Source: Psammoneis japonica
Taxonomy: Eukaryota
Direction of reading: 5' to 3'
Length of the DNA stretch: 64,000 bases
Assembly: GCA_008632985.1 (NCBI GenBank)
Contig: QPGO01000068.1
Location: 310,001 to 374,000, forward strand
In this document: positions 1 through 64,000 of the stretch, piece after piece
How positions within the stretch are numbered: position 1 is the stretch's first letter
Layout: each line of letters begins with the position of its first letter
Program-made: the position numbers and the translations under genes
The notes under the pieces: model-generated
What the model was told of the DNA's origin: nothing
Databases searched by the model: none
What the model saw: the letters and a program-made list of their open reading frames with translations, nothing else

Positions 1-149
1 GCCACTCTCAATGTCCAAGTGACCCTGGCCATGGGATTTGTGCTTGTGGCTGACCTTGCCACAGCACTTGCCACAGAGGCCATTGTCCAACCACTCTCCA
101 CATCAGTGACAGTGAAGAAAATGGGCTTTGCTGTCTTGGCATCAGGTGG

Positions 150-6249: not shown

Positions 6250-8900
6250 CATTGTTGGCACTCTGAAGCCAGCCCAGCATGAGTTCGCGTTCATGGCATT
6301 GTTGCTCCACTTGCAGTCATTGGTGAGATTGGTGGGCTGCTTCTACGTTGTTCAGCCAGGCTCAGAGGTGTTCCAGGGGGCTGCACAACAGCTCCTCTTG
6401 GGTTCCCTCAAATGACCTCCTGTTGAATTGTGGAAGTTGTTGAGGGCCCAGAGTAAACTCACCTTGAACCTGATCACAAATGGCTTTGGTTTGTGCTTCT
6501 GACAGCATCACATTAGCCGGGTGGACTGTGCCATTGTGGTGTTCCCATTGATCCCATGAAATGTTGCAGACCTTGACACAATGAGTGATCTCACCCACCT
6601 TTGTCCTTGTTTCCCAGAGTTGCCCATTGGCAGCAGGCATGCTGTGCAAATTTCCAATCAAGTGAAAGGCAGCCTTCAATAAATCTGCCCCATCCCATCC
6701 AATCTTGGGAGTCTGCAGCACACTGAACCAGCTCATCTCATGCTTGGATGTGCTGCATTGGGGTGCCATCTTTCCACATTCCCCAAGTCTCTGCAGGATG
6801 ATCTTCACAATTTCTGGGTTGGTCCCTGTCTTGCACAGTCATTTTCAGAGTGTGTCTGGGGATTTGTGCCATTTTTCCGCCACACTCTCTGCCTGGCACT
6901 GCAACACATGGGTCAAGTCTTCCATTGGGAAGAGGCACTGGGGACAAGACTGCACCAGGGATTTGCTCCACAAGCACAGCATTTTGTCAGCCCCACACAA
7001 CCCAGATGTGTGCTTTGCTGCCCATCATGATCTTCTGGATGGCTTTAGATCTGATGTTGCTTTTGCTTGGGAATGGTCAGTGAAGAGAAATGACCCTTGT
7101 CCACCCACTGCTGTGAGAGTTTTCTGCTGTTGATGGCATGGGGCAGAGTGCATCCATTGCATTGCATGTGACTTTCCTGTTCCCAATCCAAAGTGCCCAC
7201 ATCTCTCCTTTTGCTCTTTGTTTGGTCAGGATGCCTGGGGCATTGGCCATTTGCTCTTCGGCCATGAGATCCATGTTGACATAAATCCAGAGGGGCAATC
7301 CAAGTCCTCATGAGCAACATGGTCATCTAGATGCCCTTTGACATTGACCGTGGACCATTTGGCCGGCAACTTTCTCATCCATGAGTGAGCCGCCAACAAT
7401 GCATCACACTGTTTGTGGTTTGCAGTGAGTTCACAGTCAAGGTTGTTGGAGTTCTTCAGGGCCTGATTGCTGTTGCAGCCAATGGAGATGCATCCCTGGG
7501 TTGCACCTCGGAGTTCACAGACTGCACAAATCAACACTGCAGCAGCAAGTTGTCCCACAATCTCAGCCAGCTCAGCATGTGTTCATGTCAGAAGGGTTGC
7601 CTCTTGCTGCATTCAATCCCTTGATTTTGTGTGTGTCATGGATGCCCCATGTTGTCCATGCTGATGCTCCCATGCCATTCAAGTGTGACCCATCAGATGC
7701 AGCTGTGGCTGTCCCTTCAGAAATTGCCTGAGCACAATTGATTTGCTGTTGTCATCATTTTTGAAATCTTCTGCCAACCACTTGACATCTGGATCAAGCC
7801 TGTTGATGGCCTGTTGGAGGTTCTGTGGAGGGCAAGCTTCTGTGAGCTCTGCTTCCTGTGAGAGATGCCTGTTGAAACCACTGCAGTGTCATTTCCCTAG
7901 ATCTTGGTTCTTGTGAGGTTCTCTGGGGTTTTGTCAGTTCCCCCCTCAAAGGCGACAGCATCGGGTGCTGATGGCTCTGGCAGGATGACCCAGGACAGGG
8001 GTGCAGCATTTCCATGTGCCATCTGGGAGGCGTTCACAGACCTGTTGCACTGATGCCAACAGGAAGCATGGCCATTTGCTCAACAAGTTGTCTGTCCACT
8101 TCCTCAAGGGGTTGTGGATGATGGAGTTTTGTGGGTCAACTGTGGTTTCCAAAGCTTCTCTCTGCCATCTCTGGTCATCCTGTGAAGGATTCCCTTGCAC
8201 CGGCCAATTGAAATCCATGTGGTGAGGGTCATGAGTTGGCAGTTGTCCACTCCAGTGGTTTTTCAGGACTCTTCTTCCATTGCCTGTGATGACATCAGAT
8301 GATGCACTCACCCACAGGAACAACTAACACAGGTTCACTTGGGCCAATTTTTCCCCTTTGAATCCCACTCTGTGTGGAACACTTTGATGAGAAATTTGTT
8401 GTTTTCCCAGTGCAGGAGAAGGGTGGGCATGTTTGCTTCCATCTTGATGCTGTTCTGACACAGGAACTTTCACATGTCCTTGATCCAAGAGCAAGTTGCC
8501 AGGCAATGAAATTTGCCACAGTTGTTGTCAAAAAATTTGTCTGGGCATCCCAAGCTCCAATTGATGCTGTTGAAGGTTAGCCTTGACCAGATCCCCTGCA
8601 GTCATCCCAGGCTGAGAATGTTTTGTGACTGTGCTGGGCTGGGAAGCAGCTTTGGCAGTGAAAAGGTTGTTTGTCCCAAGGAAGCTCTTGGCATGTGGGT
8701 GGCCCTCAGACCATGTCCCTGGTCATGTTCCTGCAAATTCCAGCCCCGGCCATTGTGAACTTGGCCTGGTTTTCTGAGATCATGAGTGCTGGAAGTGGGT
8801 GCTCCAGGGTCTTTGTTGCAGTGGCAGTTGGGTTGAGCCACATGTCTTGGCAGTTTGGGTGACACCTGTCCTCACTTTTTCTGACCATGCTTGAGCTGCT
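6250..8900 (-). mobile_element. Degenerate non-LTR retrotransposon (post-RT region plus RNase H domain)
   Basis: Contains KTLEHPLPALMISE...AGICRNMTRDMV (8706..8912), AISEGTATAASDGSH (about 7680-7735), and ISIGCNSNQAL...VNVKGHLDD (7226..7558). These match LINE RNase H motifs (AVSDGS, GCDN, HVKGHQDD). Many stops and frameshifts; ends approximate. Confidence 0.8.
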
Positions 8901-9949
8901 GTTTGGAGGCATTTAACCTCTGTTCTGTCATTTCTGTCTGCTGCCAGCCTGACCCCAAGTGCCCATTCAGCCTTGTCAACTCAACCCCTGTCATTTGCGT
9001 GGGTTGCCTTTGCTGTTTAAGTCCTTGATGGCAAACTCACAGTTGATCTCATCTTCCTTCATGTTGCTCCAGTTGCCTTGCTTCCGTTTGTCAAACCCCA
9101 CCAAACAACACATTGGCTCTTTTCTGGGACTGTTCCTCCACCCGGCACACAACTCTGCAAGTTTGCAGGTGGCAACGGCATTCATCTTGTCCAATGTCCT
9201 TCTCATCTGTTTTTGAAATGAACTTGATGTGACCTGGAGCCATTTCTCAGGAGCAACAAATCACATCATTGCTGGCATCATGTTCAGAGTCAACATCCAC
9301 TGCAATTGTGGGATCAACAACATGGCCTCCAGTTGCAAAGCCTCCCACTGGATGAGTTGGTGGGTCATTGTTTTGCCTCTTGCAATTGCTGCGACTGATT
9401 TCCAAGGCCTCAATTCCTTGGTGGAGTCTGCTGTGCTGCCAACAGCTCCTGGGGCAAAGGCAGCAATGCCAAGTGCCAGAGTGCACAAAACAAGAACATG
9501 GTTGAGTTCCTTGTTGTTCCTTTTTGTGTCAAACAACAAGGCCTCATGGGGCAAAGGTGGCATTGCCAAGTGCCAGAGTGCACAAAGCAAGAACATGGTT
9601 GAGTTCTTCATCATTCTTTTTTGTGTCAAACAAGTGCCATGCCACCCCCCACTTCTTTGTGCCAAACAAGTTGAGGTGTCACATTGTGCCCTGCGGTTTC
9701 TCAGAGAAATGTGCAACCTCAATCATGGACAGTGTTGACCTTGAAAGGCTGTGGCTGTTTTGTCCCCAGAGAGAGCTCACGACTTGGGTGACAACATTGC
9801 AGCACTCTGTTGGATGAATGAACAACTCATGCACTGAGCTGCTGGCTCTCATCTGAGTGGAATGTAGAAAGTCCAATGTGGAGCTCAGTGGTGAGAGAGC
9901 TCCTGCTGCCTCAATGTTTTGGTCACAAAAGGGTGCCACAGATGTGCAG

Positions 9950-10010
9950 CAACCCAACAACAACAACAAGAACAACAACAACAACAAGAACAACAACAAC
10001 AACAACAACA
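9950..10010. repeat. (CAA)n microsatellite, imperfect
   Basis: Directly visible in the sequence. Confidence 0.95.
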
Positions 10011-10902
10011 TGACAAATGGTGGTCCTGAAATGTCCAACTGTTTTGTGTCCATCCTTCCATCAAATGTCCTGTGATGGCCCAATTTGCAGGGCCACCCAC
10101 AGTTCCAACAGCGAGGAAGCAGGAGGCACCACCTGCTGATGTCTTGCTTGATGAGAGCCAGCACATGCCTGATGAATCATGTTGCAACAAAGAACACTTC
10201 TCAGTCAACAACAGTCTGTGGGTGTTCAAAAATTGTTTGCCAGCAGTGCTGCTGCAGGTGCAATTTGCTGGGTCATCCAGCCCCATCTCATTGTCACAAG
10301 ATGAAGAGTGGACACTGCCAAGCTTGCAATCTGCTCAGCGGCAGTGCCACAGAGCAGTGCACCCAAGCAAGCCCCATCCGATGTCAACACGCTTTGTGAC
10401 AAGCTGTGAGCTTTCAACTGCTTTTCCTCTGATGCACAAAACAGCTGCACAAACTGAAATGATTCTTTTCAAATCCCACCCACGCAAAGCCAAAAAGCCT
10501 TGCAGCAGATCCTTTTCAAACAGTTTCCAAGGCCTCAATTCCTTGGCAGCGTCTGCTGCACTGCCAACAGCTGGGGCAAAGGCAGCATTTCCAAATGCGG
10601 TTCCTCATCAATCTTTTTTGCATCAAACAAGTGCCGTGCTGCATGCCCCCCCCCCACTTCTTTGTGCCAAACAAGTTGAAGCGTCACACTGTGCCCCACA
10701 TCAGGCAACCCCAATCGTGGGTGGTGTGTGGTGTCAACCTTGACTGGCTGTGGCTGCCCAATTTCCAGAGAGAGCTTGCTCAGGTGACAACATTGCAAAA
10801 TTCTGTTGGGTGAATGAAAAACCCATGCACTGAGCTGCCAGATCTCCAAAAGGAATCTAGAAAGTCCAAGGCGGCATTCAATGGTGAGAGAGCTGCTGCC
10901 TT

Positions 10903-10924
10903 GACAACAACAACAACAACAATG

Positions 10925-10978
<54 letters not shown>
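10903..10978. repeat. (CAA)n microsatellite
   Basis: Directly visible; paralogue of the 9950-10010 tract. Confidence 0.95.
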
Positions 10979-11455
10979 TGATGAATGGTGGTTCTGAAAC
11001 ATCCAATTGTCAAGTGTCCATCCTTCCATCAAATGTCCTGCGAAATCCCAATTCGCATGGCCACCCACAGTTTCAACGGTGAGGCGGCAGGAGGTGCCAC
11101 CTGCTGATGTCTTGCTTGATGAGAACCAGTGCGTGATGAATCATGTTACAACACGCAGCACACGTCCCGATCAACGACAGTTTGTGGTTGTTCGAAAACT
11201 GTTGGCCAGCAATGCTGCTACAGGTGCAATTGTAGTGTCATCCAGTCCCATCTTATTATCACAAGATGAAGAATAGATGTTACTAAACTTGCTATCTACT
11301 CAATGATACAGCTACAGAGCAGTGCTCAAGTAAGCCTCATCCAATGGCAACACGCACTATAGCGAGCTTTCAACCACTTTTTCTCTAATATACAAAACAA
11401 CTACACAAACTAAAATGATTCTGTTCAAATCCCACCCGTGCAAAACCGAAAAGCC

Positions 11456-31684: not shown

Positions 31685-32949
31685 GCCGTCGCCATCGTCA
31701 TTTTTGTTTTCTTTTTCTTCCGTTTTGGGTTTTGGATGGAGCGTTCTTTGATGATTTTCTTTGGAGAGTGCAGCAACGAATCATTCGACTCAAACACTTT
31801 GCTGACGTCACAGCCCGCGCGTCGACTTACTTACTACTCCCAACTGCCATACGGTAGCTGCTAGCTAGAGAGAGAGTTCACTTTAGTGTCTCTACTTTCC
31901 TGGGCCCACTAGAGCTAGCTGGGCGTTGCCAGCTGATCGATCAGTTGCATCTTAGATTGATGCCGAAATGGATCAACCTGAACCCCCTACACTTGGTTGT
32001 GGATGCTGAAGGATCGAGGTGTGGTTCATCTTTGTTGGTGTGTGATTTCACAATTTTGGGTGTGTTTCACCACTGTGATTTTTTGAAATCTAAATCCCAG
32101 CACGACTTTCAAGGGAGGACCATGGGTTGGTGCATTCATCCAGAGGTCTAAGGTGCTGCATGCACCGGAGGAGGGTCAGATGGCACATTGACTTAAGCAC
32201 ACTCATGCTGGCAGAGGCAACAGCGCCATGTCAGAGCTCTTCCAGGACCCTCCATGATGCCTCAAAGCCCTCTGGGAAGGTCACAAAATCACCAGGCTGT
32301 GCAATCACAACCTTGGACTTGGAAGATTTGAGTGTTTGTCAAATGATGCAGACAACAAAGTCACAACAAAGGTGCAAAAATGGGGGTGCCAGCAACAACA
32401 GCAACAGACGGGGATGATGCATCACATTGCTGCTGCTGCTGTCAGTGAGGTGTTGCTGTTGTCATTGTTGCTGCATGAGTGGGTGCAAGCTGCCAAGTTC
32501 TCACTCTGACACACTCATGCTGGAACACACTGTCCAGCAAAGATGGCAAATGTGCTCAACAATCATTTTTGTTGGTGTGCGTTGACACATTTTGTCATCC
32601 AAAGAATGCAGAAAGTGCCATCTCCGGCATCTGTCACAAATTAGCCCAGCACTGAAAACTGCATGGGAGTGCATGAGACAATCCAAAACCATTTCATCTG
32701 GAGCTGCAACATGTCATCTCTGGCACATCTTGAGGACTGTCACATTGCTTGGGTGCACACCATCCACCCACGCCAAACCTTGTGGGCACCAGCTGCTCAT
32801 TGGGACTGGGTGAAATGCAGAGACAAGAGAAGCATCAAAAACAGCAGCTGCTTCTTGTGCCTCCTTTTGCCACCTCCACAACCCTCTTTTGCAAAATTGC
32901 CCTCCTTGTCCATCAGCAGACTGCATTGGCACAGCTTCAAGGCAGCCAA

Positions 32950-33720
32950 TCTTCCTTCCAAAACAACCTGTGACAGGTCCATTGGCCCTGGGTCAGCCTC
33001 TGGCTACACACATCCATGTGATCACAAGCTGTCCCATGGGCTTGGCATTCAATCTAAAATTGAGTTCTCCTCCAGCCAAAGAGAAGCTCTTTGTCATCAA
33101 ATTTGTGTGTGTTCTTCCTGAAAAAAAGCATTGACGACATGAGGGTTGCCTCTGACAGCTTTGCAGCAATGGGCTGCCTTCTCTTTCATGGAACCAAGCT
33201 GTCATGGACAGAGTTGCAAACCAACAAGTGAAGGTCAGCCCAGTGACTGTCAGTGGCTGAAAATGTGAGCCACCACCACACTGTGGGCACTCCACTCAGG
33301 TCTGTCAAAGCCTCAAGCTCTTTCTTCTTCTTTTCCCACTTCATTTTTTTTCTTCTTTTTCTTCTTGCAAAAGCAGAAATCAATGCCACTTGCACTGAAC
33401 TTCTGCACATGTTGGAAACAATTTCTTTGAAGTGTTGTCCACTCTCTTGGACAATGTCATCTTTCAGTTTTTTCTTGGTGAGCTGGGTGTCATCTGGGCT
33501 CTCATGCAGGTGCATGTTCTTTTGATCCTGGCAGACACTCGCAACAATGCCAAGCAGCATTCTTGGTCCAGTGCATCCACTGCTGTGATGAGCAAATGGA
33601 GATGCACCCCACTCCCCAGCCTTGTTGTCAAAAGGCACATGCCACATGCAGACATTGGCAGGGTGACCATTGTTTTTCATTGACCTCTTGGACAATGGAA
33701 GTGGGGTCAATCAAATGCAC
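32950..33720 (-). mobile_element. Helitron Rep-domain remnant
   Basis: GVPTVWWWLTFSATDSHWADL resembles the Helitron PTxFxTxSxADxxW motif. IECQAHGT (about 33025-33055) resembles the EY/FQxRG Rep motif. Confidence 0.6.
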
Positions 33721-34659
33721 ACAGCACTTGAAACATTGACATGCTCTCGCTGTCTCCTGGATGAGGGCAAATCAGATGGTTGACACAACCCACCAGGTGA
33801 GACATCCTTGCTCTCCTGGTGCTGGTGTGGATTCTGCTGTGATTCCAACAGTGGTCAATGCATGTGGCAGATGACTTGAACAAGCTGCCTGGGCTGTGTT
33901 TTTGCAGCCTTTGAGCTGCCAGGGCTTGGAGACCTCACCCTGCAAGACATTGCAGCCAGGTTCTGTTTGTTTGCAAATTGGGAAAGTGCAAAAGAAGAAA
34001 ATCTGTTGCCACCAGAAACCCAACAACACAGTGTTGCCATCCATGTGCCCCATGTCCCATGTCCTCCTTGCAGTTGCAATTTTGTCAAGCACTGCAACCA
34101 CGCATTGATCAAGCACCAATGATGCAGAGTGGTGCATCAGAATCTCCCTGGGTGGTGCTGACACATCTGAAGAGAACAACATTTGTGCTTGGAGTTAACA
34201 TGTGCAGCACATCTCACCCAAGAAGGTTGACAAATTCCCAGTTTTCTGCCATGTGAGATTTGACAGAGCTTGCACTTGCCAGCAGGAGTGGCACAAATGA
34301 CATTGTTGATGGACCAGTGGGCAATGATTCAGAATCTGATTCAATGGGTGCAAGCCAAGACTCTCAGATGGATGCTGGCCAAACTTTGAAAAAATGGATG
34401 ATGTGTCTGCTTTCTCTGAAGGAAACAATCTATCAAGTGTGCAATGGTCAACAATGTTTTGGAGCTTTTGAGTGCAGCTGTCTGGAATTTGATGGGTGGG
34501 ATGAGAAAGCAGAGCAACAGCAAGAACGTCTCTGTCTGAACCTTGTTGATCAAGCTTCAAGGTGTCAAGTTTCTTTCAAGTTGCTCAATGAATGACAGTG
34601 TCTGGCTCACCATGTTTGCAGCTGCAAGTGCTGTTGTTGGCTTGGAGACAGCAAACAAA

Positions 34660-35260
34660 AGTGCACTCTCCTTTCGTCCAGAAGGGAGGGACAGGAAACT
34701 CTTTTGCAGTTTGTGCAGTTGTGCCAGTGCTCTCTGGGGCTGTGGACTTCCAGCAAGCAGAGCCATGCTCTTGTGACAACAACAGCTGGAATGGTGGCTG
34801 CAGTCATTGGCAGATCTGCAGCACACACTCTCATCAAGAGGGATGCTGGAAATGTGGCCTGCACATGGCAAGAAAAGGGCCACTTGATTGCAACCCAAAA
34901 TCTCACTTGAGCTCAAGACAAGTTTGTGAATCTCAAGCTTTTGATTCTTGATGAGTTGTGTGCCAAAGGAAACTTGTTTGTGTTGACCCCCCAGGTTGTG
35001 CAAAGTTGAAGGTGTCAACAAGCCATTCAACAGAGTTGTTGCAGTGTGTTGGCTGGTGATCCTGGGCAATTTGTCACTGACAAGGGAGTGTTGTTTGTGG
35101 GAAGTGGCTGGGTGTGTGAGCAACTCTGAAGTGGAACACAGGCAAGTTCAAAATTTCATTCTCTGCTCTTTTGTGACAAAGCAAATTGGCGTGCATGTTT
35201 TGACATTTTGAAAGAGGGTCCCTGCTGTCCAAATGGTTTGATGCAAGCAAATTTTGGTCC
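34660..35260 (+). mobile_element. PIF1-type helicase remnant (Helitron-like)
   Basis: In order: GGTGNSF (decayed Walker A), LVTTTAGMVAAVIGRSAAH, KFVNLKLLILDEL, KPFN...LAGDPGQ, with frameshifts. Confidence 0.7.
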
Positions 35261-35369
35261 TGGTGCAGCAGAAGACGACAATGGGCACAGAGCCCATGTG
35301 AGGTCATGAGTTGAGTCCATGGCATTGTCACTCCAATTGTCCATTGACAGCCACCCTTGCTCATTTTTG

Positions 35370-35910
35370 ATTGCCGTGGTGTTGCTGTGGCTTCAAGCAG
35401 GTCAGACGGAGGTGTTGGTGTTGCACCAGATGCTCAAATTGTTGCTGTCAAAGCTCCCTTTGGCTCAACTGACACCAGTGCTGGCTCCCTTGCATCCTTT
35501 GTTGCTGCATTGGATTGTGTCATGAATGACCCTCAACTGAATGTGAAGGTCACGTTGGGAGTGGTTTGCAGTCCAGTGTCTGCAATGACACAGATGCCTT
35601 GAGAACACTTGAAGCTGAGGCAAAATCAATGCTCTGTGCAACAAAGGAGTTGTTGCTGTTGCTTCAGCAGGAAACCAGGAAAGTTCTGTGGAGGTGTCAT
35701 TGCCAGCCTGCCTTGGTGACATTCTTGTGTCTGTCATGGCATCGGACAATGACAATGATGCCATGGACTTTACAAACAGCAACCAGCTCACCTGCATGTT
35801 TGCTCTCCATGTCAGGGTCTGACCTTCTGTGCCAGGAAACTTGCTGGCAAGCTTTGGCGGAACCAGCATGAGCTCTCCAATGGCAGCTGGCTGCACTGTT
35901 CCATTGACTG
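35370..35910 (+). pseudogene. Subtilisin-family (S8) protease remnant
   Basis: GVGVAPDAQIVAVK, GVVAVASAGN and GGTSMSSPMAAG in the correct order; disrupted and TpA-depleted. Confidence 0.75.
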
Positions 35911-37129
35911 AGGACACAGAAACCACTTCCCCACAAGAGATTGACAAGTTCTTTTTCCACTGTGACAGTTCCAGCCAGCGGTCAAACTTTTCCCTGACTC
36001 AACTGTGGCACACCCACAAATCCTCCTCTGGAGCCCAAGCCCCCATGTCCTTCTTGCTCCAGTGCAACCGGCTCAAAAATTAAAACATTTTCTGTGCAAG
36101 AAGAGACCCAACCAAATGATTCAAGATTTTGCACCATCAAGCTGCACAGCAATGGATGGAGCATCAGCAACAATGAGGATTTGGGGACAGTGGAGAACCA
36201 CAGTGTGCTGTTTTGTTGAGAGGGCAGTGAAAGAGCAGTTGTCAGTTGCAACCCAGTTTTGCAGCATTTTCAGTTTTCACCAGAAACCTGTGCTGCACTG
36301 CACAAAATTGAATCTCGTCTCACTGGAAATTTGCCATTCACCCTTGGACACTCCACATGCATTCTTCCACCAACATTCCTGCATGCTGGAAGTGCTCCAC
36401 ACTTCCTGTCCATTGCATGGGCCAACCCCCTCTCTCCATCCAACTCACCATGCCCTCTCAACACCTGATTGTGGTGCATCACCACCGCCAGCATCCACAC
36501 AGCTGTGTGAACCACATGCTCCACATTCCCAAGATGCCAAGGATTCTTTCAAGTTTGCACTCTTGGTTGCTTTGTTTTTTTTTGTCAGATGCTGATGCCT
36601 TTGCAAGATTCAACAGCTCTGTTCTTGTGTTGAGTTGCACTCCAATCATTGACAAGTGTGGACAAGTCACAGCAGCAATGCATGTTCTGGCAAAATGGTG
36701 TTTGTCATGGGCCCATTCACAACATTGGCAGTGACAAGAAATTGGTGTTTTGAGATGGTGCCAGCACCTGCAGTGTGCGACTGTTATATGCATATTCATA
36801 ATTATATATTATTTATGTCAATCGTACCACAGTCGTGGATGCGTACAAAGGACAGAACGATCACACAGAGTTGATCGGATGTCGAAAATTGCAAATACGA
36901 TCGATTGACGATGTTGACATCTTACGTGTCAATAGCAATCGTATCCGGACAATCTGTTGTCACGAATATATTCTCCGAAAGGCCTTTTGTCTGTAGAAGC
37001 AGTACAGAAGCTTTAGGCCATTGAGAACTCGTTCGGAGAAACAAAAAATCACAGAGCAAAATTTAATTTCATAATTTTCACTTTTCACACTTGATTTTAC
37101 TTTCGTTTATACTCGTTCTTCGAGCATAG

Positions 37130-38975
37130 TGCACACAGGAGGAGGGGCACCAGGGGCTGTCAAAGCAGTTCTTGCTGTGGGTCACAAGAAAAAATGCATG
37201 GTGTCCAGGCAAGACTGACTTGGTGGGTTGCACCTTGTGGGTTTTGGCAATGACAAACTGCTTCCACTCAAGCCAGTTGGCAAGGAAGCAGAGGCAATTG
37301 GCAAAAGAATGGCAGAAACCCAACACAGCTGCCAGGTTTGAGAGTTGATCCTGTGAGGAAGATTCTGTCATGAAGCCAGCTGTCAGATGTGAAGTTTGGG
37401 ATGCAGCCCCCAAATTGTGCTGGAGCCTCACATGCACAAACAAGGCTGCAAGCAATGAGTGGAATGGGGTTTAAACAAGCAGCAAGTGTTTTCACTCTTT
37501 CAGCCACTCTTCCATTGCTCCCAACCTTTTCTTGTGTGTCAACTTTTTCTCTTGATTTGGTCTTCTTCTCAACTCCACCCAACCAATGGGCGCCATTGCA
37601 TGCACCTCTGTTGCTTCAAACAGAGTGGCTGTTTTGTGCTTTGCCCATGTGTCTGGTTTGGCAGGCAAGGCTTTTTGTTCTTGACCATTGTGTCATCCCA
37701 CTCATTGTCAAAGCATTGCTCCAAAGGCTCTGCTTGTCAAATGCCAAGAAATGTTGTGAGATTGACCAGCAGTGCAATGCCAGGCAGTGTGCTTTGAATT
37801 CCTTGTCCAGAACCTCACATTGTTGGCAAAAGAAAGTGCGCAGCCATGGTGTCATCACAGCAGCTCCACCATGTCAACAACCATTTGGAAGGCACTCAAG
37901 GTAAAACCATCAAGTCCAATTTTGTTGTCAATTTATCCTGACGTGAGAAGGAGCATTGGTTGTCCTGCACCACCTGTTTTCTCATGCTCAGTGCCTTTCA
38001 GACATTGGTCTTGTTGATGGACCCACTCAGTGCTGCATCTGTGCAAAGGCACACAAGCACAAAGATGGACAAGCATCTGCATGAGAGGAGCGGCACTTGG
38101 GCGCACCACTTTGAGCAAAAATCCAAGCTTTTCAAGACAAGTTGCTGAGTGCAGCTCAAAGTTTTTTCAGCCTCTTTTGCTTTGTGCTGCACCTCATGTG
38201 TTGCACATGAGCTTTGCATGCTGCAAACAACTGCTCCCAAAGGGTGTGCCATCATGCACACATTTTGCTTGAGTCATGTGCTCCACACTGACAGATTGGC
38301 TTTCCATTGGTTTTGAATTTGCCACTTTGTTTTTTCTGCAGTGCTTCCACCACCAATGGCTGTTGTTTGCCCCACATTTGAGCAAATGTCAGAGCACATT
38401 CCTTCACAAAAATTCACAGCACAGCATGCCAGCCCAACTGCTGCTGCCGTTCCAGGACAGCGAGATTCGAGTTGATGGTGTTCTGGCACCCCTTCCTTGG
38501 GAGCACCAGGCATGCCCACTTTGGATGTGCCCAATCTTTGCCCCACCTGGGGCTCCAGCATCCCTTGGCCCTCACCAACCAGCCAATGTGGAAAGCAACA
38601 CTGGGGCGCTGCTGCATGCACCCACATTGAGCTGCATCATGTTCAGCAACTGCACAACACATGAATGAAGAGCAGTGTGGTGGAAACACAGCACAGCAGA
38701 GAACACTTTTCATTTGCTTTTGTTGCCATGAATTGGGGTGCAGGACAGCAACAGCAAGGCCAGCGGCACCAAGAACACAAAACGGACGATGCCAACCACA
38801 TCCCCATGACAGCCTCCTCTTTGCCATTTTTTCTCTTGGAGTGCACCTGTGTGTCATTTTGCTCACACTGAAACAAGCCACAACTGTGTGCGCACGGCAC
38901 ATGAAGCATTTGTAAAAAACACCCACTGCCAGCTTTTCCTGCAGGGCATGGCCAGTTGCATGGTTGCATTGAACC
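37130..38975. other. TpA/CpG-depleted degenerate block, probably decayed repeat or transposon, family unassigned
   Basis: Same composition as the other decayed blocks; no motif could be assigned confidently. Confidence 0.5.
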
Positions 38976-52750: not shown

Positions 52751-53302
52751 TTAACCAAAGTAGGTGGTGGGCCTGACAGTCGTAAAGGTACGATCAGAAA
52801 GAGCCTTTTGTCCGCGCTTTCCTGATGCCACCCTGTGGCTGAGAGGGAACTTGACCTGACTCTTGGCAAACTGCATACCATTCGTACGCTTCAAATCCTT
52901 GGCTCCCAAGACACTCGTCCTAATGATTTGAATAGAACGGGGACGAGTGCGGTGCCTTCCCGCCATTTCATCGTACAGCTGCGACACGGCGCCCGTGATG
53001 GACACGTCACGATACTCTCGGTACATATTGTGCGTGCCGGACCGAGACGAGTAGCGGAGCCAAATGCCGTAATTCTTGACAATGCGCGAGTTCTTTTCGA
53101 CAATCTCCACAACGTCCAGAATTTCACCAGTCGTCTTTTTCATCTTGCGAAATTGATGGAGGTAATACCAGAACTTGGACTTGGCAATCACCTGGTTGGG
53201 AGCAAAGATGATCATGCGGTAAGCCTCGGGGTTGGCATCGTCTTCGGTGGGGGCTTTACGGCCCACCACCTGATATTGGCGCATAACTCCTGCAACAGTC
53301 AT
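52751..53302 (-). CDS. RPL18A: 60S ribosomal protein L18a (eL20)
   Basis: RQYQVVGR, FAPNQVIAKSKFWY, KNYGIWLRYSSRSGTHNMYREYRD. Confidence 0.97.
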   Translation of the reverse strand: MTVAGVMRQYQVVGRKAPTEDDANPEAYRMIIFAPNQVIAKSKFWYYLHQFRKMKKTTGEILDVVEIVEKNSRIVKNYGIWLRYSSRSGTHNMYREYRDVSITGAVSQLYDEMAGRHRTRPRSIQIIRTSVLGAKDLKRTNGMQFAKSQVKFPLSHRVASGKRGQKALSDRTFTTVRPTTYFG

Positions 53303-53936
53303 TCTGGAAAAGAGAAAAAATTAAAGTAAGAGAGGGTCAGCTGTGAATTGACTTTTGCGTGTTGTTGTGAGGGAAAAAAGTGGGCTCAGATCCAGATCAT
53401 GATTTCTGAGCAGGTTGTTCGAGAAAACAATCACAACGACGGTGTTTCTTTTCACATTGTCATCAGAGCGACTCAGAAAAACACACGCCATGAAGCATAC
53501 AAGAACGACTGACTCTATATCAGCGAGTTTTCAACAAACGTCGAGCCGTCGATATAAACACAGTCATGGTCGCACCTTGCAGAGATTTGCGTCTCGCAGT
53601 TCGAGCGGCGATGTGAAATCTCGTGTACAACTCACGTAGAACCAGTGTTGAACAGCGCAAGTAAGCGGTAACCTGTTGCTACCATACGCGCGTTCCTTCC
53701 AACAAAATCGCGCTTGAAGAATCATCAATCTGTGTGTCAGTTTGACCATTTTGTGGTGTTTAGTGACCGTTCCACTTTGAGACAAAAAAGCGGCGCGCGG
53801 ACACCAAAAATCTTCAGAAGCACATGGCGTTCGCTGGTACAAAAATGACGTAGAATCTACGTAGGCACTGAAAAGTAAAACTCTTTTTCAATCCATATTT
53901 TTGTTGTTGCTGAAGTTGTTGTCAAGCTCTGTTACC

Positions 53937-54359
53937 ATGTCGGACGAAGCCGCTGTCGGAGAAGAAACCAAAGCAGACGGATCTGAGCCCATTACGATCC
54001 GTGTCCGTGATCAGGTATGGCGATACGGTAGAGAGCGCGTTGTGCTTTGGCTACGAACTACCGATGAGAAGCTCCATGACCGTGGACGCGATTTTAGGCG
54101 TGAAACACTCACACACACGCGCTTGCTTGTTTGCTTTTTTCTACTGTAGACCGGCGAAGAGACGTTTTTCAAGATCAAAAAGACGACGAAACTGTCCAAA
54201 GTCTTTGATACCTACGCTTCGCGAAAGGGCGTTCAATCCACATCGCTACGCTTCTTGATGGACGGCGAACGTGTCGAGGGAGATCAAACACCCAAAATGC
54301 TCGAGTTGGAAGATCAGGATCAGATCGATTGCATGTTGGAACAGACGGGTGGAATGTAG
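53937..54359 (+). CDS. SUMO: Small ubiquitin-like modifier SUMO
   Basis: Exons 53937-54014 and 54150-54359 give ...ITIRVRDQTGEETFFKIKKTT...LRFLMDGER...TPKMLELEDQDQID...EQTGGM*. Divergent from RPL18A. Confidence 0.96.
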
Positions 54360-56465
54360 AGAATACGAGAGTATGTTATGATGTGGTGTTGTGTGGTTGT
54401 ACGGTGATTGGTGGATCAAGCACACAGCGGTAGTTCTTTGTAATGCTTATTGTAGTCGGGTATGATTTGCAAAACAAGCTCTGTGTTCTTGGCTATCCTT
54501 TCCGTATGATTGCGTGTTGGTGGAATACAAGACTTACGCCAGACATGTATAAGTACCCTTGTTGCGTTGCTCGAATCTGCAGCGCTATTTTGAATTTTGA
54601 TTCGAATTTGGCGTCGTCGAGAGCAACGCTAGAAACGAAAGACCGTTGTGCGCTATGTTAAATACTTGAGGGTTCAGATCCTTTTCTCTCACGTCCAACT
54701 AACCGAGTCAATGTATTACGAAAAAATGGAATCCAGAAGCTAGAGTATGCCGTGTACGGGTAGAATCTACTGTGGTTATTTCAACCTGGAAGAGGTCGTC
54801 CTGTGAACGGCACTTGTAATCTTACGAAAGTACAAAGACCAACTTTTCAAAAGAAACAGGAGTAGGCGGAATCAGAGAGTATTTCCGTACATGTTGAGTG
54901 ACTTAAAACCCTCTCAAAAAGAAGATAGGCAGGCGGGCAAATCCCTTTGAACCAGAATCCCGGACTCCTATAATCTAGAAAAGTGACGACACGGCAGAAC
55001 GAATCTAACGCTCTCAATCTTAAAAGAAACATTGACACTAAAAATCCGCATCAAGCTTGCGGCCTCGTTGAAGGATGATGTATAGCTGGGGTATCTCTAC
55101 TAGCCCTAGAGCTTGAGCTGCTGTACAGACGATGGACAGCAGAAGTAGATGAATTACTTCTGTGCAGGTGCACAAATCAAGCAATGCTTCCGATGGATTG
55201 TGCTTCTGTAAAACGTCAGTGTTGTTCTTATTGTAGAGCATTTGACACTCTATCTACCGGCAGTAGCTAGCTACAACTGCTCTAGAGCTCTACTCTCTCT
55301 ACTAGAGCAGTAATAGAGACAACATAGAGTGGCGCAGCACGCTCCTTCTTGTGCGCAGTTTCCCGACGTCACAGCTCTTCGCCTGCAATTTTTTGCCTCA
55401 GTGGCTGGAAGTGGCTCTTGCAGCTTGTTGGCTCTCATTTCTTAGTTCTCACTTGCATCTTCTGAGTGTTCCAACCATTCGGTTTTGTCATGGGAAGCAA
55501 ACAACTCTCCAGCTGGCTCTTGGGTTTTGCCTGCTCACGTGTCGCACCCACAATTCCGTGGTGACCCCCTGTCACTCCAGTTGTGTTGAGAGCCCCTGCA
55601 ACCAACATTTTTCCTGGCCAGCACAGTGAGATCTTTCGTTTGTGCATGTCAAAAGGGGGTGGGAAAATGAAAAATTGATGTTTTACAAGTCTGGATTTCT
55701 TTGCTCTGCCTTGAATTGCTTGCATTCTGTGACCATGCACCGCATGATTGTCCATGTGCAACGTGCGCACTCAGCATTTTTTAGCCTTTTCATTGCCCCA
55801 GCTCTTCTGTCACTTGTTGCTTCAGTGGCTGTTTGATGCAAGTGCTTGAGACACTGAGGTCAAAGCCAGAAGAATGAGGGGGCACTCTTGCCAACACAAA
55901 CAGCAGCCTGGTTTGTGGGGCCAGCCACACCACACTCTTCCTTGAGCTTGCATTTTGTCAACAAGACACCACACATGCAGCAGCTTGCCTCTGCTGCAAT
56001 GTTTCAAAGCAGGAGGCTGTTTTGATGACAGTTGTTTGCTGAGAATGTGACATTTTGTGAGATTGCCCAACAACTGGGAAATGCACCTTGCAATGCTGCA
56101 AAGGAACACCTGGCAAAAAGACCCCCTGTTCTGGGACAAAAAGTGGTGTGCATTTTCAAAATTTTTGTGCTCTGGCCCATGCTGCTGGCTGGTTTTAATT
56201 CGTTCAAATGAACTTCAATCACAACTTGCACACCCGCTGATGCTGGTCCCTTCACTGTTGTCAAGGTTGCTGTGGGGCCATCCATTTGCAAGTCAATGTC
56301 ATGACACCACAGGCAGCGGGGAGAGGGGCTGGGTGGAACATTTTCACAGTCCAAGCAGTCTGGGCAATGCTCTTTTTTGATTTTGGGATGCACCTTGTTG
56401 TGCCTGACAGGATGCCGAAGGTCAATGATGACAGATGCATGAAAGACTCCCCAAGCGCCAGGGAC

Positions 56466-56592
56466 TGTGATGACACGAGCACTGGCAGATGAGAAAGTGA
56501 GAGGCAGATCTCAGAGAGATCTGCTCGTCTGTCTAAATGGTCTGGTCATCATCCATGTGCAGTCTGTCCATCACATGACATGCAGACTGACA
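56466..56592 (-). repeat. Putative 3' LTR of the copia element, preceded by a polypurine tract
   Basis: On the minus strand, CAGGGGAGGG (56602-56593) is followed directly by TGTCAGTC. A candidate ...ACA end lies at 56466. The second LTR is not in the window, so the distal end is unverified. Confidence 0.6.
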
Positions 56593-56760
56593 CCCTCCCC
56601 TGATCTGCAATGTCTCAAAATAGAAGACAGTGTAGATCAAAACAAGAACAGGGATGATGCAAATGGAGCAACCAGAAGAAGGACACCAAAGGTGTCCAAG
56701 CCCAATGCGCATCAAACAACGGGGCAATGCGCAGCAGGAGAGGCTGCCATGGAAAAAATG

Positions 56761-59700
56761 TCAATGGCAGTGTCCCATCACACGTTGAGTGTGGCGAGTG
56801 TGGAGCACCCACCCAAGAGCCTTGGCAAGGTCATTGCTGGGGTTGACAATGCCAGGGATGTGTCTGGTGACAATCTTGCCCGCTTCCTTCCATTCTTGAA
56901 TCGCGAAGAACTGAACCTCAATGTGGTGCGAACGCTCAGTCGGAATCGAATGATTGATGATCTTGATGGCCGATTCGTTGTCAACATGCAAGGGGGTTGG
57001 CTTCATTTGGGAATGACCAAGGTCATGCAGCACATGGCGGAAGCAAAGAACATGCTTGGCAGTGGCACCAGCAGCATGGAATTCTGCTTCTGTAGAACTC
57101 GCAGCGGTCACCGACTGCGTCTTGCAATGAAAGGAGATGGCAGCACCAGCCAACATGCAAGCACATCCCATCATAGAATGTTGATTACGAAGATCATTTC
57201 CACACACAGCATCAAGGAAGGCAACAAGTTGATGGTCACACTCAGGAGTGGGGAATGATGGGAGAGGAGCGGGGAATGACGGGAGAGACGGATCGGGACT
57301 CAAGCATTCACACGGATGGGCAGGGAGGCTCGGGTCACGTTTAGATTTCTTGTGGTTCAATTCCCAATGTTTGGCACATCGGAGACACTTGCGTGCACCC
57401 TTGAGTGCATCGCAGTGCACTGCCGCAGGGCAAGTGGAGAACTTGGAAAGGGCAGTGATGGCATGGCCAATGTCGAGTCGACAGACAACATGTGCATGCA
57501 ACAGCTCACCAGGGAGGGTGTGGCATCCAAAACCAGCAGCTTGTTGCAGCTCCACATGTTCCGGTGTACCTTCAGCAGGACCAATGTCAGTGTAAAGATC
57601 TCGAACAGAATCCACCGGAATTGGAGTCGCCTTGAAGTCATCAAGCAGTTCTTCATCACTTGGCGCAGACCAACCGCATGAGAGGCAAACACGGTCAATG
57701 TAATTGTAGATGGCGACACCAATTGAATCATCATGCTGATGGACATCCACACCATTGAATTCCTCCAGGAGGCCAAGGTGCTTGAAAGGCGGAGCAGTTT
57801 CCGAGTCCAGTTGAAGGGCTTTGCCAATCCTGTCACAGATTGCATTGGCAATGGACTCCCCGGGGCAAGCAATGGCAAAGTCATCAACCTGTTGAAGGAG
57901 CAAAATTTTGTGTCCTTCAAATGCAGCAGAGCAGATGCATTTGTCGTGAGCAGTGTTCCGGAATAAAAGATTCACATCAGATGAGACACCATCAATGTGA
58001 TTCTCCCAGAGCATGCCGGCTTCTGGGTGTCCTTGAAGAGCATGTTGCATGGGAAGTGCCATGCTCCTGTCCAACTCCTTTCCAAAGTGAGACTCATGCC
58101 AAGTCGCATGTGCATCGTCAACAGCAACATGGACAGGATGTGACGGGCAGGGAGAATGGGCACAGGCATCGCGGGCATCACTGCCATGTGCTGGACAACC
58201 CATTGCAGCTGCCAGGGCAAAGAACATCTGTTGGATGGGTTGTTCAACACAGGAGGAGCATGTTGAACAAAGATGATGGAGAACAAATGCAGCACGAGGG
58301 GATCCGTTGCAACACTGACGAGAGCACCGCGCACTGTCATGTTTGAGGTCATGTTGCCAGTGTGGTCTCAGTGCAACTGCATCCTTTGGATGTTTGATGG
58401 GAGCACCAAACATGCCCAACTCATGAAACTGGTCAAGTTGTTTAAATTCACCCATGCGCCATTCAGGCCAAGTGTCCAATTGCTTGAGTCGATGGCGAGT
58501 GAAGGTGCCCAAGGCTTGTTCCTCTGGGGCAATTGCGCGGGAGGAGATTGCATGGACTTTGACGACACCATTGTTGTGGTCAACATGTGCAGGTGGCAGG
58601 ACGTTGTCATCATCAATGGCTTCGAAATCAGCACTGGGATGGCGCACCGCAGCAATGGCACGTGTGTCGGCCTGTGCAAGCTCCGGGACATGTTCATCAT
58701 CAGGGTCCAGGGTGGGGGAGAAGATGTCATGTTCCATCAGAGCATGTTGGAGAGCTTGAGAGTCCAAGCAACGTTCTGGCGTGAATTCAATTTCAAAATG
58801 TGTCTTGCCAGACTCACGCAACTGCTGGAAATGCTTGACAGCATCATCACGGGTAAAAACTGGTTGATGATCAATCGATGCAACACACGCGCCTTTGATC
58901 TTGTTGCGGGTTGCCTTCAAGTTCGAGAAAAGATGATCAGTGGGGGAACCACGTTTGATGTCCGAGACGAAAACACGTTGGCACAGATCATCCACAGCCA
59001 ATGAGAAGCCATGAGAGGGATCCGTGAAAGGTCCTTTCATGGCACGTGTGATGGTCTTGGCAAAAGGGTTACCATGAAAGTGAAATTCATCCACAGTGGT
59101 CTCTTCAGTGTCGGCAGGGAGGGCATCACCAGCCTGAGCACGTTGCAAATGAACAACATTCGGGGGAATAGAGTCGTGGGGTAAATCATTCATCCCCTCA
59201 TCACATCTGATGTGCTTGGCCAGCTCAACACGCGATGTCTCAGTGTCGCACCACAAAATGTTCTTGGTGGCATCCGGAAGGCATCCCAAGAAAATCCCTT
59301 TGCGTGATGCGGTCCGGAATTTTGCCGGACGGTGATTCAAAGCACGCACCCAAACGCGACAACCAAACGTGTGGAAGTTCCGAAAATCATCCTTCTGACC
59401 AGCAGCAAGTGCAATCGGAGCAGCAGTCTGCCCCCGGGATGGCATGGCATTCTTGATCCGAATGAAGTGATGGAAAGCATGGGGCCAAAACTTGATGGGT
59501 AAATCCGCACCAACAAGCATCACCTGAATGGCATTGGCAATGGTCAAATGACTCCGTTCAACTGGGCCACTCTGATTCGAAGCGTCTTTTCCAGTGGGAC
59601 GAATTGCACAATGAAAGTCATCCTCGAAGAGTCGCCGAACTTCTGGGTTCTGACATGACTCACCTCCTTGATCCACAAATGCATGTTTGTCTGGACATTT

Positions 59701-61806
59701 TGGCGAGTGCTCTTCCAGAAAGTGGCGAATCCAATTCAAAGGGGTTGCCTTGGAGACACGAGTCGCACCATGGAGATGCTTCGTTTTATGATCATAAATG
59801 GCAATCCAACAAGTCTCGCCATTCAATCCAACACAGTCCTTGGTGCGCTCCGAGTTCTTGGAGCGTAGGCCAGAGAAGGAAAAATCAATCGTAAGGCCTT
59901 GGCATGGTTGGGTGGCAGTGAGAGTGGTGTTCGGACCGGCAGGTTCCTTCGTCTGCTTGGCTCGCATGCATGTGGGACAAGTGTCGAGAGGAGAAGTTCC
60001 GTGGGCAAACTTGGGGACGCCATCAACATGTTCATGGGCATGATGAAGGCAGTGATCACTCGGATGACCAAGTCGCTGATGCCACAAAAGACGTTCCGTG
60101 TCGGCCTTGAGAGACTGGACAGGAATGTTCTTCTCAGCATGCTTCTCGAAAGGAACATCTTGACAGACACGGGGGATCAACTTGCATTCATCACGAAGAG
60201 CTTCATGTTGGTGGGTGCGACAAGTCTCAATCACACACGCAGAGACCGCTTCACACTCATTGGCAAAAGAAGGATCAGCAGTCTTGAGGCGCTCGACAGA
60301 TGCATCCAGTTCGTCGTTAGATTCCGGGAGAATGAGAGGGTGAGCAAAACATTTTCCATTGATCAATTTTCCATGAATGACAACATCCTGACTCTTGCGC
60401 AATCGGTGTCGTGCAACAAACTTGCAGGCACCAAGATCATGGAACTTGAGAATGCAATCGACATTGCAATCTGTGAAACGAGAACCATTTTGACGAAGGA
60501 GGAGTCGCTCATCGACCAACGTAGATTGGATCTGTGGGTGGCAGCATGCACGGACCTCAACATGGCCATCAGAGTTCTCTGCAGGGATGCGAAGACAGCC
60601 GAATCCAACTGGGACAGCTTGGTGGCCAAGGGCCGGGTTGACAGCAAGGGGACAGGGATGGGACGGAGTGAAGTCTTGGCAGCAATGGAGGAGGTCACGG
60701 TCGCCTGCACATGCAATGTTGGCACCTGCATCCAACTGAGCACAACGTTGATGCCACAAAAGGCGTTCCATGTCGGCCTTGAGGGATTGGACGGGAATGT
60801 TCTTCTTGGCGCACTGCTCAAATGGGACATCTTGAAATGCTCGGGGAATCAACTTCCTTTCCATGCAGAGAGCATCATTTTGGCATGCACGATGTGTTTC
60901 AATCATGTGGGCCGAGACTGCTTCACATTCATCCACAAAGGAGGGGTCACTTGCCTTGAGGCGCTCGACAGATGCATCGAGCTCATCATGGGATTCTGGG
61001 AGAATGAGTGGGTGAGTGCAACACTTGCCATTGGTCAATTTCCCATGAATGACGACATCCTGACTCTTGCGCAAATGATGCCGTGCAACAAACTTGCAAG
61101 TGCTGAGGTCATGGAACTTGAGGATGCAACCAACATTGCAATCCATGCGACGGGCACCATCCTGTTGGAGCAGCAATCGTTCATCAACCAAGGTAGATTG
61201 GAGCTGTGGGTGGCAATGCGCACAAATCTCAACATGTCCATCAGAGTTCTCCGCAGGCATGCAAAGACATCCAAAGCCAACTGGGACAGCTTCATGTCCA
61301 AGAGCTGGATCAACAGCAAGCGGGCATGGGGCAGAAGGAGCAAACGCCTGGCATCAATGTAGGAGATCACGATCTCCAGTGCAGGCAACATCAGCACCAG
61401 TGTCAAGTTGAGCACAGCGCTCATTTGGGGCAAACTTGACACCATTGACAGCGCAGGCAGTGCGGAGCAGATCTGGTGGATCCAAGTCATCATCATGCAG
61501 TGAGCCAAGCGGGGCAATGCAGACAGAATTCACTGCGGTGAAACCATCCTCAACAGCAATGTCGTCATGGGTGAGATCAACGAACTTGGCAAATTCACAT
61601 CCCTCTAAATCTTCCCTCCCCTGTTCTAAAGAGTCCAGAACAGGATCAATCTCCAATGTGCCATCAGGGAGAACAGGATCGTCATCAGGCAACTTGGTGG
61701 TGTCAGGAGAGACCTTCGAGTCGGGGGTGCAGTCCGCATCAGTCGTCGAAGAAAGAGGCAGCACAGTGGCAGATGACGAGACGGTTGGTCCCTCTTTCAC
61801 AGTCAT
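56761..61806 (-). pseudogene. copia pol (protease-integrase-RT-RNase H), open for 1499 aa but saturated with missense changes
   Basis: ORFs 56761..61260 and 61354..61806 are in the same frame, separated by a TGA. Conserved Tyr residues are replaced by Cys/His. Confidence 0.85.
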
Positions 61807-63433
61807 CCCGCTGACATTGGTCTTGTCTCAGTGGGCAGAGAATGGGCTGCATCGGAGATCCGAAACTAGCTGCGACGGCCCGACTGAAAATCTGAAGACT
61901 GGACACCAGCACTGGGTGGAGAATCAGATGGGGCTTGATGAGGCGGCAACAAACCTTGTGGTCCTTGAAATTCAGAGGCTTGCATGGCCGCTTCGCGCTT
62001 CAAAAATTGACAAAAACGCACATGGAAGCCCTCATTGTATGGGTTGTTGTTCAAGACAGGACAGTCATGGAACAAGTGCTCGTCAGAACAAACAAGGCAT
62101 GGTTTCTTGGAGGCCTCTGTGGGAGCAACCTTGAGTTTGTGTGCCAAAGCTGAGCAGACATGATGAAGGAGACGATCTTCATCTTCTGTGGAAGGTGCGT
62201 CAAGGTCATTCAATTCAGCACAGAGGGAGTCAAAGGTGTCCTCGGGGGAGTTGTCGATGTTGGTGGCTTCAGGCAGCTCGTCTGCATCCTCTGCAATGGG
62301 AGGGACATCCGGAATGGTCAAGGAATTGACATCGGCAGTGGTGCGACGCGCATCGCCTGGGTGTCGATCCCATGTGCGGCATGGATTGCAAGGAGTCGCA
62401 CGGGTTGCAAGAGATGGACTGTCCAACTGACGAAGGAAGTCAGACAGAGTCTCAACAATCTGTGCACCCGTGTGCTTCTTGAGCATGGCAGGAGACTTCC
62501 TTTCGTCCCTGGCAGCACGGGATAAGAACTTGGAGCATTTGGTGTTCTTGATAAAAACAGTCATCTCTTGAGAGTCATCCAACGTAGAGTCCGCATTAAA
62601 GATGTGAGCACGCAGCTGTAGAAAATCCTTGAAACACAAGCGACAGTCCGTCAATGACAGATTTCCTTGAATGGGGCAGGAATCTACCAAACCAGCAGCC
62701 TCGTGATTGAAAGCCGGGTGGTTCTCGCAGACAATTTGCTTGAGAGCCTTGCAGCCATTGCCATGGCATGAGGCAACAATCCGATGATGCTTGCTGTTCT
62801 TGGGGAACACATCAGACTTGGAAAGGATCTTGTGAAGGGAACTTTGTGCTTCTTTACAATGAACATACATTCGTTGGGGCAAGTCATCGTCTTTGCCATT
62901 GCCAATCTCAAAACCCTTCTCACCACCATGGTCCTTGGTGAAGCACCACAAAGGATGCACGCAGCATCCTGAGTCAAAGGAGTGACGTTGAAAATTTTGG
63001 TGCCATGCACGTGTCCCAGCGGGAGAATCATCATGGCAGATTGGAGGTTCCCTGAATGGCATCTTCTGGTCAGGGGCCGAGCTCATTGTAAACAGGGCAC
63101 CATCATTGAGAATGATGCGGTCAGACGCATCAACATGGTGGCGGAATCCATGGCCACAATGGACTGGGGAGCTCTTCAGGGTGACGGCACCATGTTCTTT
63201 GCAGTCGTAGCATGTGCAAACATCAGGAGGCAGGGTGTCAGGATTGAAGAGACATTTGAATGCTGTGGAAGATGCAGGAGTTCCAGAGGTCTTGCCAGAG
63301 GAGTCACGAGTCAACAACCGAGTCTGATTCATGGATGACGCTTCCGGTCATGGATCTCTTCTTCCGGAAGAAATGTCTGTTGAGTCTTCTAGCGACAGTA
63401 ATCGGAGTGACACACACGACCGTTAGGTCATAA

Positions 63434-64000
63434 TGTCATCTCCAATCCCTCGTGAGATCTTCTCACAATTCGTATCTTTGGCGCATCTCATTGTCCCAAA
63501 ACTGCTTCTTGTCATCCTCTGTTGCATTGTACAACCTCAAGAGAGTCCTGAACTCTCCATCCTACACAGTGCATTGTTGTATCCCAAGTGGTTACGACCC
63601 CAATCCACGCACCGGTGTCAACTCGTAACGGAGTTGCTGCCACTCGTTCGTCTCGTTACAGACGACATCCTGTCCAACGGCGATCTTCTACATCGCAATC
63701 CAACGGCGATCATCTATGTCGCAATCCCCACCTGCTAATCGATCCTCTATGTCGAATCATCCACAACCATGTCCATGGATCCTGATGCCGTCAAGATGTT
63801 TGCTGAGGCCTTCGCCAAGATGCAAACCTCGACCAACCCTCCTACGATCCCCACGCCGCTTCGCGGCGGTATCCACCACTCTCATGGAGTGCATCTGGGT
63901 GGTTCGGCTCTGAACAACAAGCACGAGCAGACCGACACCCGCACCCACCGTTTTGCCTCGCAACGTCGCCATCCGAAAGCTGTCGACTCTGTCGAGCAAT
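63434..64000 (+). mobile_element. Possible 5' end (LTR, PBS-like site, gag start) of a second, oppositely oriented LTR element
   Basis: TG at 63434 ... CA at 63586, followed by TGGTTACGACCC (resembles GGTTATG-type iMet PBS). An open frame from ATG 63775 (MDPDAVKMFAEAFAK...PTPLRGG) runs off the window. Confidence 0.4.

Follow-up and report, generated by a model that had tools for sequence, protein, structure and literature searches.

The 64,000-nt stretch of DNA analysed here (the window, to which all positions refer) carries a dead Ty1/copia-type retrotransposon on its minus strand, and within Pol of this element a 672-nt unit with the protease occurs twice, in tandem and in frame. The two copies diverged before hypermutation, and their TpA steps were then changed to TpG or CpA independently in each. 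The element as a whole is very probably the product of an out-of-register join between two diverged members of one family, followed by TpA>TpG/CpA hypermutation with a slower decay of CpG alongside.

A copia element with a tandem protease unit

Read along Pol, the D-T-G motifs are followed by integrase, RVT_2 and RNase H, which is the copia domain order. The element is made up of the following parts.

55501..63390, no strand: sharply bounded TpA-poor domain, comprising the element and 1.26 kb past the Pol stop
56764..60075, minus strand: remaining Pol, with integrase (gag_pre-integrs, SH3_retrovirus), RVT_2 reverse transcriptase and RNase H, 52% identical to the diatom copia Pol P0001
60076..60747, minus strand: copy 2 of the 672-nt unit, from RCAQLDAGA to LLWHQ, running on into integrase (RLGH...)
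60744..60751, minus strand: WHQR/CAQLD junction, with 2-4 nt of microhomology (A[G/A]CG) common to the three boundary sequences
60748..61419, minus strand: copy 1 of the 672-nt unit, 5' in the element, beginning shortly upstream of the protease active site (RCAQLDTGA) and ending at LLWHQ
61420..61824, minus strand: N-terminal stretch of Pol upstream of copy 1 and in frame with it, aligning to P0001 residues 22-154
61878..63254, minus strand: gag-like region, in frame -3 as opposed to -2 for Pol, aligning to residues 179-655 of Fistulifera solaris protein P0026

The Pol frame measures 1530 aa from stop to stop (56761-61353, minus strand) and extends upstream to 61827 through a TGA at 61354-61356, the sole in-frame stop, which lies inside copy 1; the gag-like open frame occupies 61866-63347 (minus strand). 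Within the Pol ORF, Pfam places gag_pre-integrs at 412-467, SH3_retrovirus at 652-720 and RVT_2 at 986-1223, the last with a profile score (28.8 bits) under the cut-off of 31.6, as would be expected after hypermutation. The best of 107 protein homologues matches with an E value of 3e-177 and 53% identity over the matched part. Named homologues come from the diatoms Fistulifera solaris, Nitzschia inconspicua and Cylindrotheca fusiformis, which suggests a raphid pennate diatom as the probable host lineage.

The two copies of the unit form an ungapped tandem pair, identical at 513 of 672 nt (76.3%) and at 175 of 224 residues, the 159 mismatches being divided into 108 transitions and 51 transversions. 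A blastn comparison of copy 1 with copy 2 gives an E value of 4e-142, and a repeat search also recovers the 672-nt spacing. With tblastn, the single-copy homologue P0001 aligns collinearly in two overlapping parts, residues 22-385 to 61824-60739 and residues 155-1464 to 60741-56770, so that its residues 155-385 are matched twice in the window. The sequence-only reading had described an in-frame 672-bp duplication with an equal offset at both ends, a WHQR/CAQLD junction and two protease domains, and all of this is borne out, the protease motif being LDTGA in copy 1 and LDAGA in copy 2. The LLWHQ at which copy 1 ends is the start of the integrase zinc-finger motif. The boundary sequences read GAG CGC/TGT, CAA CGT/TGT and CAG CGA/CTT, and their short microhomology leaves the exact limits of the unit ambiguous.

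Around 61824-61878 (minus strand), where the frame changes between gag and Pol, P0026 covers both as one chain; a frameshift mutation and a programmed shift are the two candidate causes of the difference. A direct repeat flanking the element (an LTR pair) was not found within 53001-64000, the window ending about 650 nt upstream of gag; likewise, there was no match near gag to a copia-type primer-binding motif, and a Pfam scan of nine flanking ORFs found no domain. The 1.26 kb past the Pol stop (55501-56760) are as TA-poor as the element and more CpG-poor (observed/expected ratio, o/e, 0.21-0.47), with no Pfam domain and no partner repeat upstream of gag; this stretch may be a 3' LTR, an older repeat or flanking DNA.

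Loss of TpA and ancestry of the Cys/His pairs

The element as a whole has a TpA o/e of 0.10, and its duplicated part one of 0.05, with CpG at 0.59, CpA at 1.75 and TpG at 1.47, compared with 0.5-0.75 for TpA and about 1 for CpG in the gene-like parts of the window. Counted per 500 nt, TA occurs 1-5 times over 55501-62500 and 7-8 times over 62501-63500; outside the domain, the counts are 14-31 in the bins of 53001-55500 and 12 in 63501-64000. Long open frames occur in all six phases, including an antisense frame of 497 aa (59869-61362, plus strand), and are a by-product of TA loss, which rules out TAA and TAG; by the same token, the 1530-aa Pol frame is not a mark of intactness.

The direction of change was read from an alignment of Pol, minus copy 1, to 49 homologues (those of 1250-1700 aa among P0001-P0060, leaving out 11 of the 60), with columns taken as conserved where at least 60% of the 49 agree. 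At the 35 conserved Tyr columns the element has Cys 20 times, His 12 times, Phe twice and Tyr once, whereas at the 55 conserved Arg columns it has R34, H8, Q6, K3, C2, L1 and M1. Loss of Tyr is therefore near-complete (32 of 35 columns Cys or His) and comes from both strands, while the CpG-type loss of Arg is partial, 34 of 55 columns being kept; CpG depletion with a gain of TpG and CpA is present in the element, yet partial. Thr has become Ala in 12 of 46 columns and Ile has become Val in 8 of 43, both being A>G at the first codon position. Over the whole of Pol, Tyr has fallen to 0.30% compared with 3.67% in the homologues, and Cys (4.74% compared with 1.54%) and His (7.45% compared with 4.25%) have risen. 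Judged against the homologous proteins, an active element could not natively have such residues at its conserved sites.

Two asymmetries within these columns deserve mention. Conserved Arg has gone to His or Gln 14 times and to Cys only twice, which neutral CpG decay does not predict, so that some of the changes may have been fixed earlier, under selection; the pattern may also reflect avoidance of the stops that CGA>TGA would create. Among the Tyr>His outcomes, 11 of 12 are CAT and 9 of 12 lie within CATG; the Tyr>Cys outcomes comprise 11 TGC and 9 TGT, and a 3' C accompanies A>G on that strand 11 to 1. This may be a neighbour effect on strand outcome, with CpG decay as a possible confounder.

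Five Cys/His pairs between the copies had led the sequence-only reading to propose Tyr codons as their common ancestors, and all five are present in the copy alignment. Of the 107 homologues, 69 match the unit over its full length and supply the column counts given here; they are proteins about 40% identical in the unit, with no relative more than about 54% identical overall.

Unit residue 68 (His in copy 1, Cys in copy 2): F36, Y27, R0, a Tyr/Phe column without Arg
Unit residue 171 (His in copy 1, Cys in copy 2): Q10, F8, Y7, R2, variable and weakly Tyr
Unit residue 176 (His in copy 1, Cys in copy 2): Y20, R0, Tyr
Unit residue 179 (Cys in copy 1, His in copy 2): E10, D9, A8, R7, Y0, variable and leaning towards Arg
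Unit residue 203 (Cys in copy 1, His in copy 2): Y28, R0, Tyr

The proposed Tyr ancestry stands for residues 68, 176 and 203 and is weak for 171, while at 179 the outgroups lean towards Arg.

The same pairs could in principle come from CpG decay alone, that is, from Arg (CGY) in methylated DNA, with CpG lost on different strands in the two copies. The Arg that this explanation needs was not the prevailing state at most of the sites in question: none of the 69 homologues has it at residue 68, 176 or 203, columns that are mainly Tyr or Tyr/Phe. Sorting the YR steps of copy 1 against those of copy 2 gives 19 reciprocal TG/CA steps, 20 in which CG faces TG or CA, 12 CG/CG and a single TA/TA. Each of the 19 reciprocal steps was then judged by whether the homologues have the residue expected from a TA or from a CG ancestor. 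Eight are clearly TA-derived (residues 7, 14, 27, 68, 107, 135, 176 and 203), the CG-predicted residue being seen 0 times; of the rest, one is weakly TA, two are clearly CG (residues 11 and 106), three are weakly CG and five are uninformative, so that 8 of the 10 clearly resolved steps derive from TA. An arithmetic estimate from a simple decay model of the YR matrix (12 CG/CG, 20 CG against TG or CA) puts about 4 of the 19 steps down to CpG, which agrees with the outgroup sorting. Divided by origin, the CA/TG mismatches are thus mostly of TA descent, as had been proposed, with about a fifth (two clear and three weak cases) going back to CpG; put differently, roughly four in five reciprocal steps come from TA, not CpG.

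CpG decay does have a visible share in the element, in the CpG o/e of 0.59, in the 16 of 55 conserved Arg columns that are now His, Gln or Cys, in residues 11 and 106, in the Arg-leaning residue 179 and in the 20 steps with CG in one copy only. As the sole cause it is refuted, and we give it almost no credence: it cannot yield a TpA o/e of 0.10, and it does not fit the conversion of 32 of 35 Tyr columns next to 34 of 55 Arg columns kept. It remains a minor contributor, to about 2-5 of the 19 steps. When CG in one copy faces a decayed step in the other, the partner is TG 13 times and CA 7 times.

Between the copies there are 27 adjacent double-transition steps, of which 19 are reciprocal (binomial p 1e-7 against a 22% share). 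The raw count is no evidence by itself, because circularly shifted, out-of-register alignments of such TG/CA-rich DNA give a mean of 14.9 reciprocal steps (range 6-27); it gains meaning because the alignment is homologous and the outgroups fix the ancestor.

At the Tyr columns within the unit, the copies agree five times and are reciprocal three times, which fits the reciprocal share of 0.47 expected for independent outcomes (p 0.73) and upholds the earlier proposal that the copies were mutated independently, on either strand. Along Pol, the order of Cys and His over the 32 Tyr sites shows 19 runs, compared with 16.0 +/- 2.6 expected; strand choice looks like a coin toss made site by site, without runs. 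Paralogous contigs from one public run have the opposite outcome at several positions (59226/7 and 62033/4 are CA here and TG there, 59656/7 is TG here and CA there), which indicates that separate genomic copies were mutated separately.

A different way to obtain A>G changes of this kind is editing before integration, on RNA or cDNA, either by an ADAR-like activity on double-stranded RNA or during reverse transcription. A>G with a 5' T or U is the ADAR neighbour preference given in bioRxiv 10.64898/2026.01.13.699255, and the locus has no LTR pair that would prove a post-integration origin. We nevertheless consider editing before integration very unlikely, given that the strands are finely intermixed without runs, that the TA-poor domain continues 1.26 kb past the Pol stop and has sharp edges, that other blocks of the window are stripped as well, and that the same preprint documents the comparable process in Bigelowiella natans in real time, in DNA already integrated.

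Age and origin of the duplication

Outside YR steps, the differences between the copies fall mainly on third codon positions (positions 1/2/3: transitions 8/4/38, transversions 8/7/36) and are spread fairly evenly along the unit. With YR steps masked, dS is 0.68 and dN 0.063, a dN/dS of 0.09. It follows that the copies diverged as working coding sequence before hypermutation, in agreement with the earlier suggestion of an old duplication or a recombinant. In a tree with 35 homologues the copies are sisters with 100/100 support, a grouping that is helped by their shared Cys/His convergence.

Such a history of selection on both copies raises the question as to whether the unit was duplicated long ago within one active lineage and both units were kept by selection, possibly as a covalently linked protease dimer. 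This would account for the D-T/S-G motif in both copies, the masked dN/dS, the in-frame join and the fact that the copies are each other's closest relatives. Relatives with two units were looked for in several ways: none of the 107 long homologues matches the unit twice; the four mid-length matches of a 426-aa two-copy query each cover one unit only; a junction-spanning query of 160 aa had no match among proteins of 88-280 aa; a degenerate junction pattern hit 12 loci in JGI metagenomes, all chance matches without copia homology; and a HMMER search of 1.84 billion representative sequences listed no match above 60% identity. The junction moreover cuts the integrase WHxRLGH motif, which looks accidental. 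Of three public runs of one sample, two gave no aligned contigs; short contigs of the third add a little to this picture, 1236 of them aligning to 59000-62500 at a likeness of at least 80%. Their summed depth, about 2190-3830 across copy 2, drops at the junction to 660-1470 across copy 1, although contig depth cannot rank parts of a gene and the step is a weak hint only, and one paralogous contig of 426 nt ends its alignment at 60746. Where contig alignments jump forward or back by a net 672 nt, they are hopping between the copies and are uninformative on duplication in relatives. Taken together, a lineage with two selected protease units seems unlikely, and on the basis of the dN/dS and the contig-depth step we favour a join of two subfamily members out of register as the source of the duplication.

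The join could also have been made by the assembler, out of two family members placed out of register, and a family with this many similar contigs is indeed highly repeated. At 76% identity, however, the copies are much too different to be alleles, the join keeps the frame and sits at a microhomology, and TpA and CpG levels are alike on either side of it, so that an assembly artefact appears highly improbable.

For the out-of-register join, the following course of events would fit. The 5' part (gag and protease, up to WHQR) and the 3' part (protease, integrase and RT) would stem from two sequences of one family that had diverged under purifying selection and were joined 672 nt out of register at the microhomology of 2-4 nt, most likely by template switching between co-packaged RNAs in reverse transcription, the textbook route to such a join; we think it less likely that a deletion between two adjacent copies brought them together. 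The whole element was then hit by a local hypermutation that turned TpA into TpG or CpA almost to completion, the change being A>G on either strand, chosen per site, with a slower CpG>TpG/CpA decay alongside. With each TA in each copy hit independently, about half of the homologous TAY pairs have split into TGY in one copy and CAY in its partner. The duplication, the direction and specificity of the changes, the independence of the copies and their divergence ahead of hypermutation are shown by the sequence; we infer this mechanism for the join, as well as action on integrated DNA and an adenine deaminase as the agent.

Among the 1236 contigs, 269 are 95-99% alike to the locus, closer than we estimate two independently hypermutated copies to be; they may be alleles, or copies made after hypermutation. 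As a bolder side reading, the element lineage might have transposed for a while with its two linked protease units, replaying the origin of the bilobed pepsins from a homodimer.

Relation to known hypermutation and recombination

The only published case of TpA erasure to TpG or CpA is that of Bigelowiella natans, described in a 2026 preprint, and the present locus is a further instance, in a new lineage and with an internal replicate. In B. natans, Mettrop et al. (bioRxiv 10.64898/2026.01.13.699255) describe TpA>TpG/CpA changes on integrated giant-virus and virophage DNA in mutation-accumulation lines and propose a DNA adenine deaminase. Shared with that system are the change itself, with TpG or CpA depending on the strand, and its confinement to local domains of foreign DNA; the TpA-depleted coding sequences of B. 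natans are enriched in reverse-transcriptase domains. Unlike in B. natans, the process here affects an LTR retrotransposon in a diatom, and erasure is near-complete rather than in progress. CpG is decaying as well (o/e 0.59; 16 of 55 Arg columns), whereas GC>AT is about 0 in the B. natans regions, and the CpG loss here may be a separate, methylation-driven decay. The B. natans process was measured in real time, whereas the diatom case is known from sequence alone. The preprint (bioRxiv 10.64898/2026.01.13.699255) has 0 mentions of diatoms, and our literature search found no paper on TpA loss in diatom transposons.

It is tempting to go further and propose that diatoms defend their genome with a dedicated system in which adenine is deaminated wherever TpA occurs in silenced mobile DNA, a system shared with the chlorarachniophyte Bigelowiella and possibly old in SAR, with strand choice per site, no processive runs, about 97% erasure and CpG decay lagging behind. 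We hold this broader proposal tentatively, at somewhat less than an even chance. If TpA erasure is a real host defence of diatoms, a mechanism known from one preprint would gain a second eukaryotic lineage; dead diatom transposons would keep long open frames, with TAA and TAG unable to arise; and LTR-divergence dating and Ka/Ks of such elements would be unreliable. The duplicated protease is of particular use here as a clean paired test within one locus, with independent outcomes at homologous TA sites.

In ascomycete fungi, repeat-induced point mutation (RIP) changes C to T at CpA and so makes TpA. Like RIP, the process seen here is a dinucleotide-specific transition hypermutation that affects both strands, lies in bounded domains and ruins mobile DNA; unlike in RIP, TpA is destroyed by A>G, and the indices are the opposite (TpA 0.10, CpA/TpG 1.5-1.75). 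The fungal signature of raised TpA and lowered CpA/TpG was looked for in the element and rejected. A second known class of hypermutation involves ADARs, which are metazoan proteins. RIP is named in the discussion section of bioRxiv 10.64898/2026.01.13.699255, and ADAR hyper-editing and APOBEC editing of retroelements are covered by PMC4866542 and PMC3197674. ADAR and APOBEC editing also leave deaminase-type transition clusters fixed in retroelement copies, and ADAR prefers a 5' U; these enzymes act on RNA or single-stranded cDNA and give strand-coordinated clusters, whereas strand choice here is without runs.

Diatom Ty1/copia-like 'CoDi' retrotransposons were described by Maumus et al. 2009 (PMC2806351). 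The element resembles them in its copia domain order and in having its best homologues in Fistulifera, Nitzschia and Cylindrotheca, and differs from its diatom copia relatives in the duplicated protease unit; a literature search found no paper on duplicated proteases in LTR retrotransposons. Chimeras of two family members that arose via template switching are known among recombinant or complex LTR retrotransposons (PMC5668417 and PMC1950507). Compared with these chimeras, the switch that we propose would be 672 nt out of register and would have produced an in-frame tandem protease. A join of two diverged family members would document recombination among diatom copia elements.

Finally, two other blocks of the window, 1-11000 and 32001-38000, are stripped too, with TpA o/e of 0.02-0.06 and TpG/CpA of 1.8-2.0. 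Their CpG o/e is 0.08-0.24 over 1 to about 10000 and over 32001 to about 36000, and the first of them contains a copia RNase H fragment at 3327-3908 (plus strand). These blocks look like a later stage of the same erasure.
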